DNA of 64,000 nucleotides, taken from the sequence record MW822011; one strand, 5' to 3'. The notes beneath the pieces are model-generated. The model was given only the letters and a program-made list of their open reading frames with translations. It did not search any database and was not told the origin of the DNA. The DNA comes from Shigella phage TB004. The position numbers and the translations under genes were made by a program. Positions 5,009-51,609 of this stretch are shown piece after piece (the first letter of the stretch is position 1; every line of letters starts with the position of its first letter).

Positions 5009-6987
5009 TGTGATATAGGCTCCAAATCGATAGTTAAGTATTGTGGACGTAAGTCATTTTCAAATACAATCAGTGAACCATCGCGAGTAAAGATAACATC
5101 ATCGGTTGGGTCAGAATATAATTCAATAGTCTGAACTTCAAATTTTTCAGATGTTAAATTAATTTTAGCGATATTCCAATAAATCACATCAGCTGGGTAA
5201 TTTATTTCACCGATAACATAGTATTTGTCGCGTCCATCAGAATTTGCTAATTTGTTAAAATCGTTGCCTGTATATGGCTGAATGTTTTCATTTTCTGTAA
5301 CATCGCCAGAAGCAAATGGACCAATAATAACTTTACCAATTCCTTTAGAATCTCGGTCTGTTGATACTATGCGAACGTCATATAATACATCTTCTTCTAA
5401 ACCAGTATCAGGATTCACAACCTTTCGTCCAGAATTAAATGAAAACGTATTAGATTCCATAGAACGATCTTTTATTTGATTATTGTATTTAATACCTGCT
5501 TCAGGCGTTTTATAGAAGTTTTGTACTTCACGAACAATTTGAATTGTCGCTGATGAACCAATGATAGAATGATCTGCATCATCTACATATGTCAACATCT
5601 TAGATTTAGCGAAAGATGAGTTAAAAATTTCTACGTCTTCGGTATAATAACGATCAATTTTATCAATTATTTGACCTTCAAGCCACTGTTCGGATTCTTG
5701 CAACTTATTTAAAGCATATGTGACTTTTAAATTAGTCTTAATAAAAAGATAATTAGGAGAAATAATTGATGGCGTAATAGGAGCTAAATTATAGTCTTTG
5801 AGATAATTTTTAATATCTTCGCGTTGTACAGTAGTTAAATACAACCCTGATTTAGGTTTAGCAGCAATAAATGCATAACCAGGTTTAGTAGAATCAGTGA
5901 AAGTCTGAACTGCTTGAATAATAGAACCAAATCTCTCTGAAACGAATGTATCATAGTCAGTCGCAGTTACGCAGCGTTGCTGGGTTTCGCGTTTAATAGT
6001 ACCCAATTCGCGAATACGCTCAATATCTTCTGGATCGCCGCCGCCATCTGCCCCAACAAAATCTGGGTCATCGTTTGGATTTTCATTAATGTTGATGACA
6101 GTTATATTTGTCAATGTATCTGCATATGAAAATCCGACAGCGCCATTCGCATCTGCGCCGTTAGTACTGATGTACTCAATAACAATCGTAGAGTTCTGGG
6201 TAGGTTTAAGACCCCCAATATAATTAGCAGTCAATGCTCCTTCTGCCGCATTAACAGAAATCTCACCTTCACCAAAATAAAACTCAGTATTTCCATCAAT
6301 AGTTTCACGCATGTAGTAAATTGTTGATGTAGAACCAGCATGAACCATTGACTTTCTTGTCCAGTTAATCCATTCTGCTCCATCAACGTATAGTTTAACT
6401 TGGTTTCTATCTATATTTTTGTCATAAATGATAATAGGTGTTAATTTATCATAAATGATTTCAGTTCTTACTATACGTCCCTGGGCCAATTTTAAACGCG
6501 GAAAATATTGGTTATTTTTATCGCGAATAGCAATAACATCTTCGGTAGAGACAAAGTTATAAGGATTAACTGAAGTATCTTTTGCATATGCTAAAAAGCG
6601 AGTACCACGAGGAATAGTAATGTAATTTCTATTCAATGCGTCTGTACAAGTTAGCATAATTTCAGTTTGAGCAGCTGATTTTGAAGTAGGTAAATATCCA
6701 TTATCTTGTGCAGCTTGAACTACTGAACTGCGCAAATTAGCAGTACGCATAAAGCTTTCATATACGGCAGCATTACCAAACTGCTGAATGTATAATGTAT
6801 TATAAGCCAAAAGGTCGCACAGAACGTTTAATCTTGAGCCTTCAAAATCATAATCCAAAAATTCATTTTGGCCATTAAGCCATTCAATGAGGTTTTGTTT
6901 TATTTCAGCAAATGTACCCCCGACGAATATCTCGGGAATAGCATTTGCTGTTCTTGTTAATTGATAATTTACAGGGGTATTTGCCAT
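5005..6987 (-). CDS. 6: baseplate wedge protein gp6
   Basis: 660-aa ORF; size and synteny match T4 gp6. Confidence 0.85.
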   Translation of the reverse strand: MANTPVNYQLTRTANAIPEIFVGGTFAEIKQNLIEWLNGQNEFLDYDFEGSRLNVLCDLLAYNTLYIQQFGNAAVYESFMRTANLRSSVVQAAQDNGYLPTSKSAAQTEIMLTCTDALNRNYITIPRGTRFLAYAKDTSVNPYNFVSTEDVIAIRDKNNQYFPRLKLAQGRIVRTEIIYDKLTPIIIYDKNIDRNQVKLYVDGAEWINWTRKSMVHAGSTSTIYYMRETIDGNTEFYFGEGEISVNAAEGALTANYIGGLKPTQNSTIVIEYISTNGADANGAVGFSYADTLTNITVININENPNDDPDFVGADGGGDPEDIERIRELGTIKRETQQRCVTATDYDTFVSERFGSIIQAVQTFTDSTKPGYAFIAAKPKSGLYLTTVQREDIKNYLKDYNLAPITPSIISPNYLFIKTNLKVTYALNKLQESEQWLEGQIIDKIDRYYTEDVEIFNSSFAKSKMLTYVDDADHSIIGSSATIQIVREVQNFYKTPEAGIKYNNQIKDRSMESNTFSFNSGRKVVNPDTGLEEDVLYDVRIVSTDRDSKGIGKVIIGPFASGDVTENENIQPYTGNDFNKLANSDGRDKYYVIGEINYPADVIYWNIAKINLTSEKFEVQTIELYSDPTDDVIFTRDGSLIVFENDLRPQYLTIDLEPISQ

Positions 6988-14519: not shown

Positions 14520-14900
14520 ATGTATAAAGTGTATGCGGATTATCAGGCTAATCCATCTGAAAAGCCAGGTTGTCAAATTGGATGGGCTCATGATACTTTG
14601 CTTGAAGCAGTAGATGCTGCTCAAAAATTGGGATATAAATATGTAGAGATTGTTCAACCGTCAGGAAAAGTTATTACTCTTGAAGAGTTCAATAACATTA
14701 AACCAAACTTTTTACTTTTTGCAGGTGATAATTATTATCCTCGTGGTGGATATGCTGATTTAATCGCGAAAGCCGCCACTGAAGATGAACTCCGTGATAT
14801 TATCAAAGAAAATGAAAACAAACTGATGTATGGTTCTAATCGCTTTGATTGGTGGCAAATTGTAAATGCCCATACTCATACTATTGTTGATGAAGGCTGA
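14520..14900 (+). CDS. hypothetical protein (126 aa)
   Basis: ATG-initiated ORF MYKVYADYQ... Confidence 0.45.
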   Translation: MYKVYADYQANPSEKPGCQIGWAHDTLLEAVDAAQKLGYKYVEIVQPSGKVITLEEFNNIKPNFLLFAGDNYYPRGGYADLIAKAATEDELRDIIKENENKLMYGSNRFDWWQIVNAHTHTIVDEG

Positions 14901-24929: not shown

Positions 24930-25150
24930 TGGCAAAGATAATTATTGAAGGTTCTGAAGATGTGTTAAATGCTTTCGCCGAGTGGTTTAGTAATTCAGGC
25001 GAACAGCAATTTAATGAAGCGTGGAATATGGGTGATATTGATGGAATTTATCCTACGACAGAAATTTCTGTTCAAGGATATGGAATTCATGAGCCTATTC
25101 GTTTAGTTGAATATGATTTAGGTACTGGTGAGGAAGTAAAATATGATTGA
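24929..25150 (+). CDS. hypothetical protein (73 aa)
   Basis: ORF in the denV-regB interval. Confidence 0.4.
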   Translation: MAKIIIEGSEDVLNAFAEWFSNSGEQQFNEAWNMGDIDGIYPTTEISVQGYGIHEPIRLVEYDLGTGEEVKYD

Positions 25151-25409
25151 AGATATTAAGGGTTATAAGCCACATACTGAAGAGAAAATCGGTAAAGTGA
25201 ATGCTATTAAAGACGCTGAAGTTCGTTTAGGACTTATCTTTGATGCTTTATACGACGAATTCTGGGAAGTGCTAAATAATTGTGAAGACTATGAATTCGC
25301 GAAGAATTATGCTGAAAGCATCGATCAGTTAACTATTGCTAAAACGAAACTCAAAGAAGCCAGTATGTGGGCTTGTCGTGCTGTGTTCCAACCAGAGGAA
25401 AAATATTAA
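25143..25409 (+). CDS. hypothetical small helical protein (88 aa), syntenic with the T4 vs.3-vs.5 interval
   Basis: ORF; position only. Confidence 0.4.
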
Positions 25410-25687
25410 TGGCTCAATTAAGCGCAGGGTTTGGTTATGAGTATTATACTGCCCCTCGTCGTGTATCTGTTGCTCCTAAGAAAATTCAAAGTCTTGATGA
25501 CTTCCAGGAAGTAGTCCGTAAAGCTTTCCAGGACTATGCGCGTTATCTTAAAGAAGATTCACAGGACTGTCTCGAAGAAGATGAAATTGCTTACTATGAG
25601 CAGCGTCTTGAACAGCTTAAAAACCTACATGAGGTTCGTGCAGAAGTTTCAAAGTCTATGAATAAATTGATTAGATTTAAAGAATAA
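25409..25687 (+). CDS. hypothetical small protein (92 aa)
   Basis: ATG overlapping the upstream stop. Confidence 0.4.
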
Positions 25688-25721
25688 CTGTTTACTTTTC
25701 CTCTTGACTGTGGTATAATTT
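25687..25721 (+). promoter_or_regulatory. T4-type early promoter
   Basis: GTTTAC ... TGTGGTATAAT. Confidence 0.55.
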
Positions 25722-25746
25722 TTCTATCAGTTAAGAGGAGAATAAC

Positions 25747-26208
25747 ATGACTATCAACACAGAAGTTTTTATCCGTCGAAATAAGCTCCGTCGTCACTTT
25801 GAGTCGGAGTTTCGTCAAATTAACAATGAGATTCGTGAGGCATCAAAAGCAGCAGGGGTCTCATCGTTTCATCTAAAATATTCTCAACATCTTCTTGATC
25901 GTGCAATTCAACGGGAGATTGATGAGACATATGTTTTTGAATTATTCCACAAAATAAAAGACCATGTTTTAGAAGTTAATGAATTCCTGAGTATGCCTCC
26001 ACGCCCTGATATTGACGAAGATTTTATTGATGGTGTTGAATATCGTCCTGGGCGTTTAGAAATCACAGATGGAAATCTTTGGCTTGGATTTACAGTTTGT
26101 AAACCTAATGCGAAGTTCAAAGACCCGTCGCTTCAATGCAGGATGGCAATTATCAATAGTCGTCGTTTACCGGGAAAGGCTTCTAAAGCAGTAATTAAAA
26201 CTCAATGA
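25747..26208 (+). CDS. regB: RegB endoribonuclease
   Basis: 153-aa ORF MTINTEVFIRRNKLRRHFESEF...; size and position. Confidence 0.7.
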   Translation: MTINTEVFIRRNKLRRHFESEFRQINNEIREASKAAGVSSFHLKYSQHLLDRAIQREIDETYVFELFHKIKDHVLEVNEFLSMPPRPDIDEDFIDGVEYRPGRLEITDGNLWLGFTVCKPNAKFKDPSLQCRMAIINSRRLPGKASKAVIKTQ

Positions 26209-26215
26209 GGTAAGC

Positions 26216-26761
26216 ATGAGAAAAGCACTACTCGCTGGTCTATTGGCCATTTCAATGATGGCACATAGCTCCGAGCATACTTTCAGTAATGTCCAACTCG
26301 ATAACATGCGTTACGCGTATCAATTCGGGGAACAATTTTCTAAGGATGGAAAATATAAAACACATAAAAATATCCACAAGAGCGGATTAGGTCATATAAT
26401 GGCTGCTATTTTATGGCAAGAAAGCTCCGGCGGAGTTAATTTAAAATCTAAACCAAAGCATCACGCCTATGGAATGTTCCAAAATTATTTGCCGACCATG
26501 CGAGCAAGAGTTAAGGAACTTGGTTATAATATGACCGATGCCGAAATAAAAAGAATGTTGAATAAACGGTCCAATTCAGCTTCCTGGGCGTACATTGAAC
26601 TTTCTTATTGGTTAAATATACATAAGGGCGATATAAGAAAAGCAATATCCTCTTATAATTCGGGATGGAATGTTAAAGCAGGTTCTAAATATGCTTCTGA
26701 AGTCCTAGAAAAGGCTAACTACCTTAAAAATAATAAACTACTGGAAATAGTAAATGACTAA
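26216..26761 (+). CDS. secreted lytic-transglycosylase-like protein
   Basis: Signal peptide plus SLT-like motif AAILWQESSGG...YGMFQ. Confidence 0.55.
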   Translation: MRKALLAGLLAISMMAHSSEHTFSNVQLDNMRYAYQFGEQFSKDGKYKTHKNIHKSGLGHIMAAILWQESSGGVNLKSKPKHHAYGMFQNYLPTMRARVKELGYNMTDAEIKRMLNKRSNSASWAYIELSYWLNIHKGDIRKAISSYNSGWNVKAGSKYASEVLEKANYLKNNKLLEIVND

Positions 26762-27101
26762 AATTTTGGTTTTATGTATAGGATTAATTTCATTTTCTGC
26801 TTCTGCGTCAGCAGATACATCATATACTGAAATTAGAGAATATGTAAACCGTACTGCCGCGGATTATTGTGGGAAAAATAAAGCATGCCAAGCTGAATTT
26901 GCGCAGAAATTAATATATGCATATAAAGACGGAGAAAGAGATAAAACAAGTAGATACAAGAACGATACTTTATTAAAACGATATGCTAAAAAGTGGAATA
27001 CCTTAGAATGTTCAGTTGCGGAGGAGAAAGATAAAGCCGCTTGTCATTCAATGGTTGACCGTTTGGTAGATTCTTATAATCGAGGATTGAGTACTAGATG
27101 A
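26754..27101 (+). CDS. secreted small protein (115 aa)
   Basis: N-terminal signal peptide MTKILVLCIGLISFSASASA. Confidence 0.45.
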   Translation: MTKILVLCIGLISFSASASADTSYTEIREYVNRTAADYCGKNKACQAEFAQKLIYAYKDGERDKTSRYKNDTLLKRYAKKWNTLECSVAEEKDKAACHSMVDRLVDSYNRGLSTR

Positions 27102-27577
27102 TTGTAAAATATATCAAGGGCGATATTGTCGCCCTATTTCTTCAAGGTAATATTATTGCGCACGGGTGCAATTGTTTTCATACTATGGGTTCAGGTGTAG
27201 CGGGTCAATTAGCAAGGGCCTATCCTAAAATTTTAGAAATAGATAAAACCACTACTGAGTACGGTTCTCGCGATAAATTAGGCGATATGTCTATTGTTTT
27301 TAAACATAGTCCTACGGGATTTGGCATATGCTATAACCTGTATACGCAATACGAACCGGGTCCTAATCTTGATTATGGTGCTTTAGTAAACTGCATGATA
27401 GAATTAAATCTACAGGCAGAAACCCTTTTGTTTAAACCAGTAATTTACATTCCACGCATAGGTTGTGGTATTGCTGGCGGCGATTGGGATAAGGTTTCTA
27501 AATTAATCGACATGTTTACTCCTGATATTGATTTAATAGTGGTGGATTATGAAAGCACATTACCCGCATCCGTTTGA
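27098..27577 (+). CDS. macro-domain protein (ADP-ribose binding/processing fold)
   Basis: HGCNCFHTMGSGVAGQL and IPRIGCGIAGG motifs resembling macro-domain glycine loops. Confidence 0.55.
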   Translation: MIVKYIKGDIVALFLQGNIIAHGCNCFHTMGSGVAGQLARAYPKILEIDKTTTEYGSRDKLGDMSIVFKHSPTGFGICYNLYTQYEPGPNLDYGALVNCMIELNLQAETLLFKPVIYIPRIGCGIAGGDWDKVSKLIDMFTPDIDLIVVDYESTLPASV

Positions 27578-27761
27578 CCCTAAAAACAAAGCAGAAATTA
27601 TTCGTCAATGGGAACGCATTTGCCGTACTAAATGCCCAATTAATAGTCCACATGATGTAGATAAAGACTATATTGGAACATTCGTTGAATATACCTTTAT
27701 TGATAAGAAAGGTCGTAAACAGCACGTAGAAGAATATTGCTTAAAGGTTACATGGTTATGA
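27549..27761 (+). CDS. hypothetical protein (70 aa)
   Basis: ORF. Confidence 0.35.
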   Translation: MKAHYPHPFDPKNKAEIIRQWERICRTKCPINSPHDVDKDYIGTFVEYTFIDKKGRKQHVEEYCLKVTWL

Positions 27762-27964
27762 GCCAAACTAGTATTCTTAAAAATGCGCATTGTGAAAAGT
27801 GTAAATGGCCTGTTGTTTTTGCTTTATGCAATGATGAAATGGCTTGTGATTTCGATTATTGGTGCTATTGTTCTAATAAAGGATGCATAAATCATAAAGG
27901 CGAAGGATTTTATTCGGGATTTTATCCTTATCCCGATTTCATTAAAGAAGGTAAACCAAAATGA
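27737..27964 (+). CDS. Cys-rich small protein (75 aa)
   Basis: CEKCKW...CDFDYWCYCSNKGC. Confidence 0.4.
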   Translation: MLKGYMVMSQTSILKNAHCEKCKWPVVFALCNDEMACDFDYWCYCSNKGCINHKGEGFYSGFYPYPDFIKEGKPK

Positions 27965-28130
27965 ATAATTTTGAGTTACAATATGAAGTGTTACGTGAGC
28001 TTGATAATTTAATTGAACTCGCTGTTAATAAAGGTTTTGCCATTGGAATTGGTCAAAAAGATACTGATCATTTAACTATGGAAATATTTAAGCAAAAGCG
28101 AATTATTTTAAAACTTCTGGAAATTAATAT

Positions 28131-28316
28131 ATGAGTCTAAGCATTAGTCAGAAAAGTAGATTATTTGAGCTTATTCATGAACTTCTAGATGAGCATGCAG
28201 AAGCAAACACCTTTTATGATGAATACGGCCCGCTATCTCCCGAACAACAGGAAGAATTTGCTGACCGGTTTGATAAGAAAGAAAACGAATTAATAGCTTA
28301 TGTGAATACGCTTTAA
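28131..28316 (+). CDS. hypothetical small acidic protein (61 aa)
   Basis: ORF. Confidence 0.35.
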   Translation: MSLSISQKSRLFELIHELLDEHAEANTFYDEYGPLSPEQQEEFADRFDKKENELIAYVNTL

Positions 28317-28325
28317 GAAGGTGAT

Positions 28326-28907
28326 ATGGCTAGTTTAATTTTTACTTATGCAGCAATGAATGCTGGAAAATCTGCTTCTCTTTTGACTGCTGCACATAAT
28401 TATAAAGAACGCGGAATGAGTGTATTAGTTCTTAAGCCTGCTATTGATACTCGCGATTCTGTTTGTGAAGTCGTTTCTCGCATTGGAATTAAACAGGAAG
28501 CGAATATTATTACGGATGATATGGATATTTTTGAGTTCTATAAATGGGCTGAAGCACAAAAAGATATTCATTGTGTATTTGTAGATGAAGCCCAGTTTTT
28601 AAAAACTGAACAAGTGCATCAATTAAGTCGAATTGTTGATACATATAATGTTCCTGTTATGGCTTATGGTCTAAGGACTGATTTCGCTGGAAAATTATTT
28701 GAAGGTTCTAAAGAACTTTTGGCGATTGCAGATAAACTTATTGAACTAAAGGCAGTTTGTCATTGCGGTAAAAAAGCGATTATGACGGCTCGATTAATGG
28801 AAGATGGAACACCAGTTAAAGAAGGTAATCAAATCTGTATTGGTGATGAAATTTATGTTTCTTTGTGCAGAAAACATTGGAATGAATTAACTAAAAAGCT
28901 CGGTTAG
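28326..28907 (+). CDS. tk: thymidine kinase
   Basis: 193 aa; P-loop AAMNAGKS; recognisable Tk. Confidence 0.9.
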   Translation: MASLIFTYAAMNAGKSASLLTAAHNYKERGMSVLVLKPAIDTRDSVCEVVSRIGIKQEANIITDDMDIFEFYKWAEAQKDIHCVFVDEAQFLKTEQVHQLSRIVDTYNVPVMAYGLRTDFAGKLFEGSKELLAIADKLIELKAVCHCGKKAIMTARLMEDGTPVKEGNQICIGDEIYVSLCRKHWNELTKKLG

Positions 28908-34005: not shown

Positions 34006-34974
34006 ATGAAAACTGTAACTATCAATAAGGGTATCTACTTCGGTAAAGAAATCTCTGGAACTTTTGAGCTCTTAGGCGAATGGTTCCCAGATAATGCTCC
34101 GGTAGATGCACAAGGAGATGGTAAAGTTTTTGTTGAAATTGACGGTAAACGTCGCGGTGTTTGGGTTTACAAATCAGATATTTCATATGATGGTGTAAAA
34201 GTTGAAGAAGTTAAAGAATCGTATGAAGATATGAAAATCCGCATTAATAAAAGATTTAATGTTATGGGAATGATGACGAATGGTATTATTAACGGAAATA
34301 TTCGTTCATTAATTATCTCTGGCGCAGCAGGTATTGGTAAAACGTATTCTTTAGATAAAGCTTTAAATAAAGCAAATGATAATGAATACATTGAATATAA
34401 AAGCATTAATGGTAAAATCTCTGGTATTGGTCTTTATGAGCAGCTTTGGAATAATCGTGAAGAGAATTCTGTCCTTTTGATTGATGATGTGGATGTTTTC
34501 TCTGATATGGACATTCTTAATCTTCTAAAAGCTGCTCTGGACACTGGAGAGACCCGTAAAGTCTGCTGGAGCACTGCATCTTCTTACTTAGAAGAAAAAG
34601 GCATTGACCGTGAGTTTGAATTTAAAGGAACGATTGTTTTTATCACAAACGTTGACATTGACCGCGAATTAGACCGTGGTACTAAACTTGCCCCACACTT
34701 ACAAGCATTAGTGTCCCGCTCGGTTTATTTGGATTTGGGTGTTCACACTAATGAAGAAATTATGGTCAGGGTTGAAGATGTTATTCTTTCAACTGACATG
34801 ATGCAAAAGCGCGGTCTTTCTGATGAAGAAACTTATAAAGCATTATCATGGATGAAAGTTAATGTTAATCGTTTACGTAATGTTTCACTGCGTACTGCAC
34901 TTTATCTTGCTGACTTTATTATGACCGACAAAAACCATTGGGAAGAAATTGCTGAAACGGTATTATTAAAATGA
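34006..34974 (+). CDS. P-loop ATPase (322 aa)
   Basis: Walker A SGAAGIGKT, Walker B VLLIDDVD; same GGAGAATAAAATG leader as the ip cassettes. Confidence 0.55.
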   Translation: MKTVTINKGIYFGKEISGTFELLGEWFPDNAPVDAQGDGKVFVEIDGKRRGVWVYKSDISYDGVKVEEVKESYEDMKIRINKRFNVMGMMTNGIINGNIRSLIISGAAGIGKTYSLDKALNKANDNEYIEYKSINGKISGIGLYEQLWNNREENSVLLIDDVDVFSDMDILNLLKAALDTGETRKVCWSTASSYLEEKGIDREFEFKGTIVFITNVDIDRELDRGTKLAPHLQALVSRSVYLDLGVHTNEEIMVRVEDVILSTDMMQKRGLSDEETYKALSWMKVNVNRLRNVSLRTALYLADFIMTDKNHWEEIAETVLLK

Positions 34975-35690
34975 AAAAATATTTTACTATCTATAAAACT
35001 GAAATATTAAATTTAAAGACAGGTATTAAGAAATACTATTATGGTCGACATATAACTAATAACATCAATGATTCGTATGTTGGTAGTGGAAATTATATAG
35101 AACGTGTAAAAGTGTCAAATAACCACATATTATCAAAAACGGTTTTAGAAGTTTTTGATAATTATGATAAAATGGTACAAGCTGAAATATTATATATCAT
35201 GGCAGGTAAATTGAAATATGGAAAAAACTGTGTTAACCTGTCATACGGGGGTGAAGGAGGAAAGGTTGCAGATGAAACTAGGATAAAATGCAAAAAGCAT
35301 TCTATAAATTTATGGAAAAATCCTAATCATATACAGCATATGAAGAAAAAGATGAAAGAGGTCACATCCACGCCGGAAGCTAAATTAAACACTTCAATAA
35401 AAACTTCGCAACGATATAAGGACCCAGTTTTTGTTAGAAAAGTTAGTAATATTATTAAAAAGAAACTAAGCAATCCTGTAGTAAAAGAAAAGCATATTAA
35501 TGGAATTAAAGCTGCAAAGCGTTCTCATTTAACTATATGGCAGTATGAAGATGAATTATTCGAGCTTTGGAAAGAAACTAAATATGGATGGAGAAAATTT
35601 ACAAAGGAAGCTATAAAACACGGGTATCCAAATGAACCGTATCGTAGTATGGTATCAACTTTTCAGAAAAGACATTTAGAAGAATCCTAA
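34971..35690 (+). CDS. GIY-YIG-type (Seg-like) homing endonuclease candidate
   Basis: N-terminal TIYKTEILNLKTGIKKYYYGRH...YVGSGNY resembling the GIY...YIG motif; basic C-terminal region. Confidence 0.55.
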   Translation: MKKYFTIYKTEILNLKTGIKKYYYGRHITNNINDSYVGSGNYIERVKVSNNHILSKTVLEVFDNYDKMVQAEILYIMAGKLKYGKNCVNLSYGGEGGKVADETRIKCKKHSINLWKNPNHIQHMKKKMKEVTSTPEAKLNTSIKTSQRYKDPVFVRKVSNIIKKKLSNPVVKEKHINGIKAAKRSHLTIWQYEDELFELWKETKYGWRKFTKEAIKHGYPNEPYRSMVSTFQKRHLEES

Positions 35691-40172: not shown

Positions 40173-41102
40173 ATGAAAACTCGTAAACATTATATTGATT
40201 ATTTTGACAGTCTTATTACTAAACACCGCAATTATCAGATCGGACACAGAGCAGTAATCAATAATATTCTTCGTGATTTCCTTCAATATGTTGGCCAGGA
40301 AAATCATATCTGTAAAGATACTCAAAACGCTTATTCTCATTCGTTAGGTAATTTGCTCGAATGGTTTAAACGTTCTCGTTTATTATCTTCTACTGTGGCT
40401 CGCGATAACATTAAAAACTTTATGAAGCCAAGCTTCATTAAAACTACGACATCTATAACCGATTTGGTTGAATTTACTATTGTTAACGATGTTAAAAAGA
40501 CCCATTTGGCTGATTGGTTATCTACCATTCCTGAAACTAAATTTGCTGATAAATTTGCTTGTCAATTCAATACCCAAGTGAATATGCTTTTTAAGCATGC
40601 TCGCAAACTATTTACCGCGGGCGATGACCGTACAAATACAGTTCATGTTAAGGATTGGGTTATTGCTGATGAAGTAACACACAAGCCAGGTGGTTCATCA
40701 GTGTTAATTAATATCCAGGTTCCTTATTATTACTCACGTAATCTCGGCACCATGACAGCTAAAGAAATTAATAAGCACAACAAAACTATTCGTTCGTTGT
40801 CTTATAAACTTCGCATGATGTTAAAAATTATGGACGTAGTGGAAATGTATGACGAAATCGAAGATAATGGTTCAATGTTATACAGTTCACGCATTCTAAT
40901 CAAACTGAAGAACCTTAATGCATATAAGACAGTTGTAAAAGAGCCTAAAGTAGAAAAGGTTGATAACCTGAGCGAAGAACGTGAATATCTCAATGCTCGC
41001 TTAATTGAAGTTGAAGCTCAGATTGCCGAACACACTAAATTGTTAAAAGCTCTTAATGCAAAAGCAAATGGTTTACGTAATGCTATTGAGGTATTGAAAT
41101 GA
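40173..41102 (+). CDS. coiled-coil-tailed protein, paralog 4 of 4 (309 aa)
   Basis: Internal HARKLFTAGDD motif and C-terminal coiled coil. Confidence 0.5.
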   Translation: MKTRKHYIDYFDSLITKHRNYQIGHRAVINNILRDFLQYVGQENHICKDTQNAYSHSLGNLLEWFKRSRLLSSTVARDNIKNFMKPSFIKTTTSITDLVEFTIVNDVKKTHLADWLSTIPETKFADKFACQFNTQVNMLFKHARKLFTAGDDRTNTVHVKDWVIADEVTHKPGGSSVLINIQVPYYYSRNLGTMTAKEINKHNKTIRSLSYKLRMMLKIMDVVEMYDEIEDNGSMLYSSRILIKLKNLNAYKTVVKEPKVEKVDNLSEEREYLNARLIEVEAQIAEHTKLLKALNAKANGLRNAIEVLK

Positions 41103-50814: not shown

Positions 50815-51609
50815 ATGAATTATTTAAATATATATAATTTACTGATAGAAAAAGGACTAAACAGAGGCAATGATAAAAGTCTTTTGACATACTATACTGA
50901 AACTCATCATATAATTCCTAGATGTATGGGTGGTACAGATGATAAAACTAATTTAGTTCTTTTGACACCAGAAGAACATTTTACCGCGCATTTATTATTA
51001 TTTAAAATTTATAGACTTCCTAAATTGGCTTTAGCTATTCGTATGATGTGTTATAGTTCTGACGGAACAAGACTAAATAATAAAATGTATGGATGGATTA
51101 AAACAGCTGTATCTTCCTCAATATCGGAAGGCATGAAAGAGTTCTGGAAAGATGATGATAATAAAAAATACATGTCTAACGCTAGACGAAATGCTGGAAA
51201 ACCAATTTATCAATATGATTTAAATGGAAATTTTATTCGCAAATATAGATGTATTACAGATGCTGCAGAAGATATGTCATATAGCTGTTCAAGTTCAATT
51301 AAACAATGTGTAGATGGGAAAAGGAAAACCGCTGGAGGATTTCAATGGAAATATTATTATTCTGATAACATAGGAAAGCCCTCTAGGATGTCTAATGCAA
51401 CTAAACAAAAAATGTCTAAATCTAAACGTGGGATAACTCAGAAAAGAAATGTGCCAGTATTTCAATATGATACTACTGGAAAATTATTACGAGTATTTCC
51501 TAAAATTAAAGACGCAGCTGTATCCGTTAAAGGATGCATGTCTAATATTAAAAAGTGCATATCTGGAAAAAGCAAAATTGCTTATGGATATGTTTGGGCC
51601 TATTCGTAG
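50815..51609 (+). CDS. HNH homing endonuclease (Mob-like) with two tandem C-terminal DNA-binding repeats
   Basis: HNH motif ETHHIIPRCMGG...NLVLLTPEEH; two repeats of P(I/V)xQYD..G...DAA...IKxC..GK...GxxW. Confidence 0.7.
   Translation: MNYLNIYNLLIEKGLNRGNDKSLLTYYTETHHIIPRCMGGTDDKTNLVLLTPEEHFTAHLLLFKIYRLPKLALAIRMMCYSSDGTRLNNKMYGWIKTAVSSSISEGMKEFWKDDDNKKYMSNARRNAGKPIYQYDLNGNFIRKYRCITDAAEDMSYSCSSSIKQCVDGKRKTAGGFQWKYYYSDNIGKPSRMSNATKQKMSKSKRGITQKRNVPVFQYDTTGKLLRVFPKIKDAAVSVKGCMSNIKKCISGKSKIAYGYVWAYS

Follow-up and report, generated by a model that had tools for sequence, protein, structure and literature searches.

The window analysed here, a stretch of 64,000 nt from Shigella phage TB004 (sequence record MW822011), is a T4-like (Tequatrovirus) early region whose orientation is reversed relative to T4, and its segment 26000-29000 matches 827 phage records by megablast, the best of them Tequatrovirus genomes at ~97% identity. 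In this region the genes regB, vs.1, vs, tk.4, tk.3, three small ORFs, tk, rI.1, rI and rI.-1 follow one another on one strand, and the protein identity to T4 is 99% for regB, 100% for vs.1, 99% for vs, 94% for tk.3 and 99% for tk, against 57-58% for tk.4. Since tk.4 lies between vs and tk.3, as it does in T4, it is the positional ortholog of T4 tk.4. The first-pass annotation of this DNA had delimited an ORF at 27098-27577 and had assigned it to an early region; the ORF list returns exactly these limits on the + strand (ATG start, 159 codons, TGA stop), and the setting is borne out by the T4 regB, vs.1, vs, tk.3, tk, rI.1 and rI flanks, all on the same strand, together with a match to a T4 early-type promoter (Table 1). 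As far as its sequence goes, this promoter match is the likely start of a co-directional regB-vs.1-vs-tk.4 transcript; no match to a MotA box of middle promoters was found in 25000-28400, and a generic sigma-70 scan gave 14 sites versus 16.8 expected, with no enrichment. The vs stop codon and the tk.4 start codon overlap as ATGA (27098-27101), vs ending at 27101 and tk.4 starting at 27098, an arrangement that suggests coupled translation of the two genes. Matches to the tk.4 protein were found in 2,789 phage records by tblastn, 312 of them at an identity of at least 90%, and a protein search returned 794 homologs, so that the TB004 gene is no chance ORF.

Table 1. Coordinates of tk.4 and associated features in the 64,000-nt window of Shigella phage TB004
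Feature	Position	Strand	Description
T4 early-type promoter match	25690..25719	+	GTTTAC..TGgTATAAT, upstream of regB; 10/12 consensus positions, extended -10
Shine-Dalgarno-like GAGGA	27082..27086	+	12 nt 5' of the tk.4 ATG; read from sequence
tk.4/adfM-type gene	27098..27577	+	159-aa stand-alone macrodomain protein; stop codon within coordinates
Divergent module, tk.4 body	27137..27575		Nucleotide identity to T4 33-85% (sliding window)
Loop 1 motif HGCNCFHTMGSGVAGQL	27161..27211	+	aa 22-38; His22, Asn25, first Gly-rich (predicted ADP-ribose-binding) loop
NLYTQ	27335..27349	+	aa 80-84; Gln84 at the catalytic Lys position of TARG1 K84, DarG K80 and PhiKZ AdfM K78
Loop 2 motif IPRIGCGIAGGDW, phosphate-binding loop	27449..27487	+	aa 118-130; Ala126 at the TARG1 Asp125 position
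tk.3 ortholog	27549..27761	+	94% to T4; overlaps the tk.4 3' end

At its 3' end tk.4 overlaps tk.3 by 29 nt (27549-27577) in a different frame, compared with 4 nt in T4, because the TB004 allele lacks the T4 stop codon and is four codons longer; the identical tk.4/tk.3 layout is annotated in phage HY01 and in Dhakavirus IME281. The interval from tk.3 to tk (27737-28316) contains a Cys-rich ORF additional to the T4 set, 68-75 aa long (CEKCKW...CYCSNKGC; 27737 or 27758 to 27964), a 57-aa ORF with no T4 counterpart (27961-28134) and a 61-aa ORF with 49% identity to T4 tk.2 (28131-28316), and no ortholog of T4 tk.1 was found in it. This layout is common to HY01; IME281 has the first two ORFs and not the tk.2-like one. 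Elsewhere in the window, homing-endonuclease-like ORFs at 34971-35690 and 50815-51609 match T4 segA/segB/segC at just 26-33% and mobC at 29%, and these weak matches indicate that the mobile endonucleases of the window differ from those of T4.

The tk.4 product is a stand-alone macrodomain of the ALC1/TARG1-like class. A macro domain had been called beforehand from two glycine-rich motifs, and this call holds on both profile and predicted structure: the Pfam Macro profile PF01661 matches with 32 bits (gathering cut-off 22, E 1.3e-7) over profile positions 2-117 of 118, and an AlphaFold2 model, built with an alignment of 57 database homologs, has the macrodomain alpha/beta/alpha fold with a pLDDT of 94.3 and a pTM of 0.89. 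Both motifs are present as described, HGCNCFHTMGSGVAGQL at aa 22-38 and IPRIGCGIAGG at aa 118-128 (nt 27449-27481), and both Gly-rich loops, for which a role in ADP-ribose binding is predicted, are invariant in the 57 homologs. When the model was searched with Foldseek, the best PDB structure match was TARG1 (E 6.5e-10), with BT1257, Poa1p, DarG and SCO6735 also among the best; a search of the PDB with the family profile gave BT1257 (6e-20), TARG1 (4e-17), SCO6735 (1e-15), Poa1p (3e-14) and DarG (1e-11 and 6e-10). The closest structural neighbours are therefore members of the ALC1/TARG1-like class, clearly apart from the MacroD, viral and PARG classes. Other substrates accepted within this class are protein-Glu-ADPr, O-acetyl-ADP-ribose and ADP-ribose-1''-phosphate, and hence the substrate cannot be read from the fold.

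We then compared the active site with those of characterized macrodomains, the sequences of SCO6735, BT1257, TARG1, ALC1 and DarG being taken from PDB alignments and that of gp104 from the PhiKZ paper (Table 2). An L-INS-i alignment with family anchors places K78, K80 and K84 in the column of Gln84, in agreement with published structural equivalences, and this placement was used; an automatic nine-sequence MAFFT alignment had put PhiKZ K78 two columns off. The ALC1 macrodomain has Gln in the catalytic column as well. Across the 57 homologs, down to 38% identity, residues H22, G23, N25, C26, G33, A35, N80, Y82, Q84, P119, G122, G124 and W130 are invariant. Loop 2 aligns with LPRIGCGLAGGTW of SCO6735 and MPRIGCGLAGGKW of BT1257, and TB004 H22, N25, Q84, G122 and G124 correspond in the alignment to SCO6735 H24, N27, Q85, G126 and G128. 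SCO6735 removes thymidine-linked ADP-ribose (dT-ADPr) from ssDNA and is protective against DarT. Activity is abolished in its Q85A and Q85E mutants, nearly abolished in N27S and lost in G128E, and a water-mediated mechanism has been proposed for the enzyme (PMC9411070). Judged by the aligned residues, the active site of the T4-type AdfM proteins, the TB004 allele included, is of the SCO6735 type and not of the DarG type. Two lysines that position DNA in SCO6735, K34 and K89, are not conserved, Ser32 and Gly88 standing in their place in TB004 tk.4. The product is acidic, with a pI of 5.0, as is PhiKZ AdfM (5.05), compared with 8.4 for BT1257 and 9.5 for SCO6735; this acidity is no objection to action on DNA, since PhiKZ AdfM de-ADP-ribosylates ssDNA in vitro.

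Table 2. Active-site residues of TB004 tk.4 and related macrodomains at equivalent positions
Protein	His position	Asn position	Catalytic column	TARG1 D125 position	Phosphate loop
TB004 tk.4	H22	N25	Q84	A126	GCGIAGG
SCO6735	H24	N27	Q85	A130	GCGLAGG
BT1257	H23	N26	Q82	A128	GCGLAGG
TARG1	H32	S35	K84	D125	GCGLDRL
Taq DarG	Asn	N22	K80	Gly	GAGNGGL
PhiKZ gp104	Ile	N23	K78	G128	GCANGGL

The same comparison bears on whether the macrodomain might remove ADP-ribose from protein or RNA, either the phage's own Alt, ModA and ModB marks or those of host defences such as CmdTAC-like mRNA ADP-ribosylation. T-even phages encode ADP-ribosyltransferases of their own, TARG1 is the top structural match, and Glu-linked ADP-ribose on proteins is a substrate of TARG1 as well as of SCO6735; however, the Lys84/Asp125 dyad of TARG1 is absent, with Gln84 and Ala126 instead. 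Moreover, Alt and Mod modify arginine, and we know of no cleavage of this linkage by ALC1/TARG1-like macrodomains. As to host defences, CmdTAC is robust against T-even phages, which carry tk.4 (PMC11618068), and this means that the tk.4 macrodomain, at least the T4 allele, does not neutralise it. We therefore hold a role in protein or RNA de-ADP-ribosylation to be very unlikely.

Genetic evidence on the function of tk.4 comes from T4. In a 2025 preprint, T4 tk.4 was the single hit of the transposon-based HIDEN-SEQ screen under DarTG2, a clean tk.4 knockout was sensitised to DarTG2, and the gene was named adfM, for anti-DarT factor Macrodomain; removal of ADP-ribose from DNA by T4 AdfM is put forward there by the authors on evidence that is genetic only (bioRxiv 10.1101/2025.11.20.689424). 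A further factor of this kind had been predicted, because DarTG2 resistance persisted in T2 and T4 after loss of adfN, and in T4 even after the loss of adfA as well (PMC11825919). The anti-DarT idea for tk.4 is thus already published for the T4 ortholog, and the TB004 gene is an ordinary one for a T-even phage. We consider it probable, at roughly 0.7, that TB004 tk.4 is a divergent allele of T4 tk.4 (AdfM) encoding an early-made dT-ADPr DNA glycohydrolase that counters DarTG2, with Gln84 and Asn25 acting as their counterparts do in SCO6735. For TB004 itself, the observations comprise the gene, the predicted fold, orthology, synteny and the residues of the active site; the DarTG2 phenotype is that of the T4 allele and dT-ADPr hydrolysis that of SCO6735 and PhiKZ AdfM, and by analogy the TB004 allele would share both. 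In such a mechanism, the tk.4 product would bind the ADP-ribose that host DarT2 puts on thymidine of single-stranded phage DNA and would then hydrolyse the thymine-ribose bond, releasing free ADP-ribose and restoring replicable DNA, so that the DarTG2 defence would fail; Gln84, fixed by Asn25, would orient the distal ribose for attack by water, with no nucleophilic Lys involved. Against this anti-DarT reading, the identity to the tested T4 protein is just 58%, the C-terminal two thirds are heavily substituted relative to T4 (in the phosphate-loop region, aa 119-129, 4 of 11 residues differ), Ser32 and Gly88 stand at the DNA-positioning K34 and K89 of SCO6735, the T4 evidence is genetic, and the macrodomain class accepts the other substrates named above.

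The first-pass annotation had offered two roles for the macrodomain. Its first, reversal of DarT-like ADP-ribosylation, is supported by the DarTG2 genetics of T4 tk.4 and the SCO6735-matching active site, and would extend to the TB004 allele by orthology. Its second, processing of NAD-derived signals, finds no support: binding or degradation of Thoeris gcADPR, other cyclic ADPR isomers or similar immune signals appears highly improbable, as every one of the closest relatives hydrolyses ADPr on macromolecules and, in the published T4 screens consulted, tk.4 is reported as a hit only under DarTG2.

Small-molecule activity, as an ADP-ribose-1''-phosphate phosphatase or an O-acetyl-ADP-ribose deacetylase of the Poa1p/YmdB type, is implied by legacy labels: the protein matches PHROG 335 (E 1e-71), which is labelled 'phosphatase', the T4 record annotates tk.4 as 'phosphatase' and 'contains A1pp phosphatase motif', and 'RNase III inhibitor' and 'Poa1p-like' are also in use. 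The H-x-C-N-C motif of Poa1p, a yeast protein of the same ALC1-like class, aligns with H22-G-C-N-C of TB004 tk.4, His22 and Thr29 falling at Poa1p His23 and Ser30, both of which were picked for mutant structures. The confident part of this alignment, however, is limited to the N-terminal half (residues 3-79), with a weak second stretch at 116-148, and the match to the NCBIfam deacetylase model, at 15.7 bits, is far below its cut-off of 291. In addition, the DarTG2 phenotype of the T4 ortholog is specific. To our knowledge, there is no source of Appr-1''-p in T4 infection, and T4 RNA repair uses Pnk and Rnl and not the Tpt1 pathway. A metabolite enzyme at this locus is in our judgement quite unlikely.

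What sets the TB004 gene apart is the divergence of the allele. In a sliding window, 95-100% of nucleotides match T4 up to 27136; the identity is low across the tk.4 body (Table 1), stands at 95-98% in tk.3, collapses a second time at tk.2/tk.1 and recovers at tk. Among ~145 window/T4 ORF pairs, for which the median identity is 96.8%, tk.4 belongs to the four most divergent true orthologs, together with tk.2, trna.3 and nrdC.3; trna.3 (57% to T4) and nrdC.3 (61%), at 14520-14900 and 40173-41102 of the window, may likewise be cassettes or loci caught up in an arms race. Dhakavirus IME281 matches the segment 27048-27918 at 83.5% identity, against only ~69% in the flanks, which argues that the module was exchanged between genera. 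Within the protein, the N-terminal 48 residues, with the first ligand loop, are nearly identical in the TB004 and T4 alleles, whereas the C-terminal two thirds diverge, part of the phosphate loop included. Both alleles are widespread: the 312 phage records noted above carry the TB004 allele, and the T4 allele is found in 224 records at an identity of at least 90% and in 159 more at 80-90%, the database holding at least three tk.4 allele classes in T4-like phages. A GC-rich hairpin, AGGGCGATATTGTCGCCCT, at 27117-27135 (8 pairs, followed by a T-rich run; tk.4 codons 7-13) was flagged as terminator-like and directly precedes 27137, where the identity to T4 collapses; a 'terminator' is annotated under tk.4 in the GenBank record of one T4-type phage. 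This hairpin might act in attenuation or in the control of translation, or it might mark a recombination boundary.

This pattern of divergence would also fit a protein that neutralises DarT2 or another ADP-ribosyltransferase mainly by stoichiometric binding, with the alleles tracking toxin variants. Such a role would accommodate the place of tk.4 among the most divergent orthologs and the concentration of the divergence outside the N-terminal ligand-binding loop, and the catalytically dead Q85A mutant of SCO6735 retains an inhibitory effect on DarT in vitro that exceeds that of mutants of DarG or TARG1 (PMC9411070). By contrast, DarG K80A is inactive and the DarG macrodomain alone with K80A gives no DarT inhibition, the C-terminal domain being required, and TB004 tk.4 has no such domain; the invariance of the catalytic-site residues in homologs down to 38% identity likewise argues for selection on catalysis. 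We regard inhibition mainly by binding as unlikely, and each of the four roles weighed against the anti-DarT hydrolase (metabolite enzyme, toxin binding, protein or RNA reversal, NAD-derived signals) is much less likely than it.

For the anti-DarT hydrolase, the sharply bounded replacement of tk.4 could have been driven by selection for an altered range of targets, the GCGIAGG and GAGIGKG alleles differing in the DarT2 variants, or in the chemistry of nucleic-acid ADP-ribosylation, that they counter; we put this forward as a speculation, and a doubtful one. If true, tk.4 would serve in an arms race as an exchangeable cassette that sets specificity, with a Lys-independent, SCO6735-like mechanism, which the available text of the two published AdfM reports does not mention. 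It is in this allele cassette and the Lys-independent active site that the remaining interest of TB004 tk.4 lies, and the mosaicism of tk.4 alleles is of modest interest for the prediction of phage host range. More generally, T-even phages stack anti-DarT factors, namely AdfA, AdfN (gene 30.3) and AdfM (tk.4), to which the TB004 allele would add one case. The database labels of tk.4 as 'phosphatase', 'RNase III inhibitor' or 'hypothetical protein', and that of a more distant Acinetobacter-phage homolog as 'leucine aminopeptidase', can be corrected.

Comparison with named systems places TB004 tk.4 closest to T4 Tk.4/AdfM, with which it shares the locus between vs and tk.3, 58% identity over all 155 T4 residues without gaps (E 1e-70), a similar length (159 versus 155 aa) and H22, N25 and Q84. 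The two differ in 42% of residues, against 98-100% identity in the surrounding backbone, and in the phosphate loop, where TB004 GCGIAGGDW is the family consensus and SCO6735-like, whereas T4 GAGIGKGNW is an atypical outlier. SCO6735 of Streptomyces coelicolor (PDB 5E3B) and BT1257 of Bacteroides (2AFC/2FG1) are also stand-alone ALC1-like orphans of ~155 aa with no toxin partner, and they resemble TB004 tk.4 in the His, the Asn, the Gln in place of the catalytic Lys and the GCG[IL]AGG loop; they differ in being chromosomal and not phage-encoded, in their basic pI and in their sequence, which is only 25-29% identical. A chromosomal homolog in Pelagimonas phthalicica (6001-6459; 40% identity), the one such homolog examined, is an orphan among housekeeping-type genes with no DarT neighbour. 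This points to a reservoir in cells of orphan hydrolases that resemble SCO6735 and are akin to the phage family. TARG1/OARD1 of human and Poa1p are members of the same class at 20-24% identity, the Lys84/Asp125 dyad of TARG1 being replaced as described above. Assignment as an O-acetyl-ADP-ribose deacetylase of the YmdB type was rejected on the score of the NCBIfam equivalog model (15.7 bits, cut-off 291).

DarG (PDB 5M31, 5M3E, 5M3I) is the sole PADLOC match (model positions 3-144 of 329) and also the top NCBIfam match (antitoxin_DarG, 27.7 bits versus a cut-off of 250, positions 2-142 of 338), both covering its N-terminal macrodomain alone. It differs in having Lys80, Asn at the His22 position and a GxGNGGL loop, where TB004 tk.4 has Gln84, His22 and GCGIAGG. 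Identity as a DarG antitoxin (~330 aa) was rejected: TB004 tk.4 has neither a C-terminal DarT-binding domain nor a catalytic Lys, and its neighbours are vs and tk.3, with no adjacent darT. PhiKZ gp104, independently named 'AdfM', has a proven anti-DarT2 function, exerted by removal of T-ADPr from ssDNA (Cell Rep 2026, PMC13309987). Like TB004 tk.4, gp104 is a phage-encoded stand-alone macrodomain of ~160 aa with an acidic pI, but it is DarG-like, with N23, K78 and a DarG match at E 9e-25. Membership of TB004 tk.4 in the PhiKZ type was rejected, as the catalytic Lys is absent and BLASTP between the two gives just a 23-residue match (E 0.001). The single name AdfM, covering two unrelated phage macrodomain lineages (the Gln-type T4 Tk.4 and the Lys-type PhiKZ gp104), could mislead annotation transfer. 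The T4-type and PhiKZ-type AdfM proteins, whose catalytic residues differ, appear to be independent acquisitions, and the mechanistic expectation for the T4-type family is Gln-based, SCO6735-like catalysis and not the Lys-based catalysis of the DarG/PhiKZ type.
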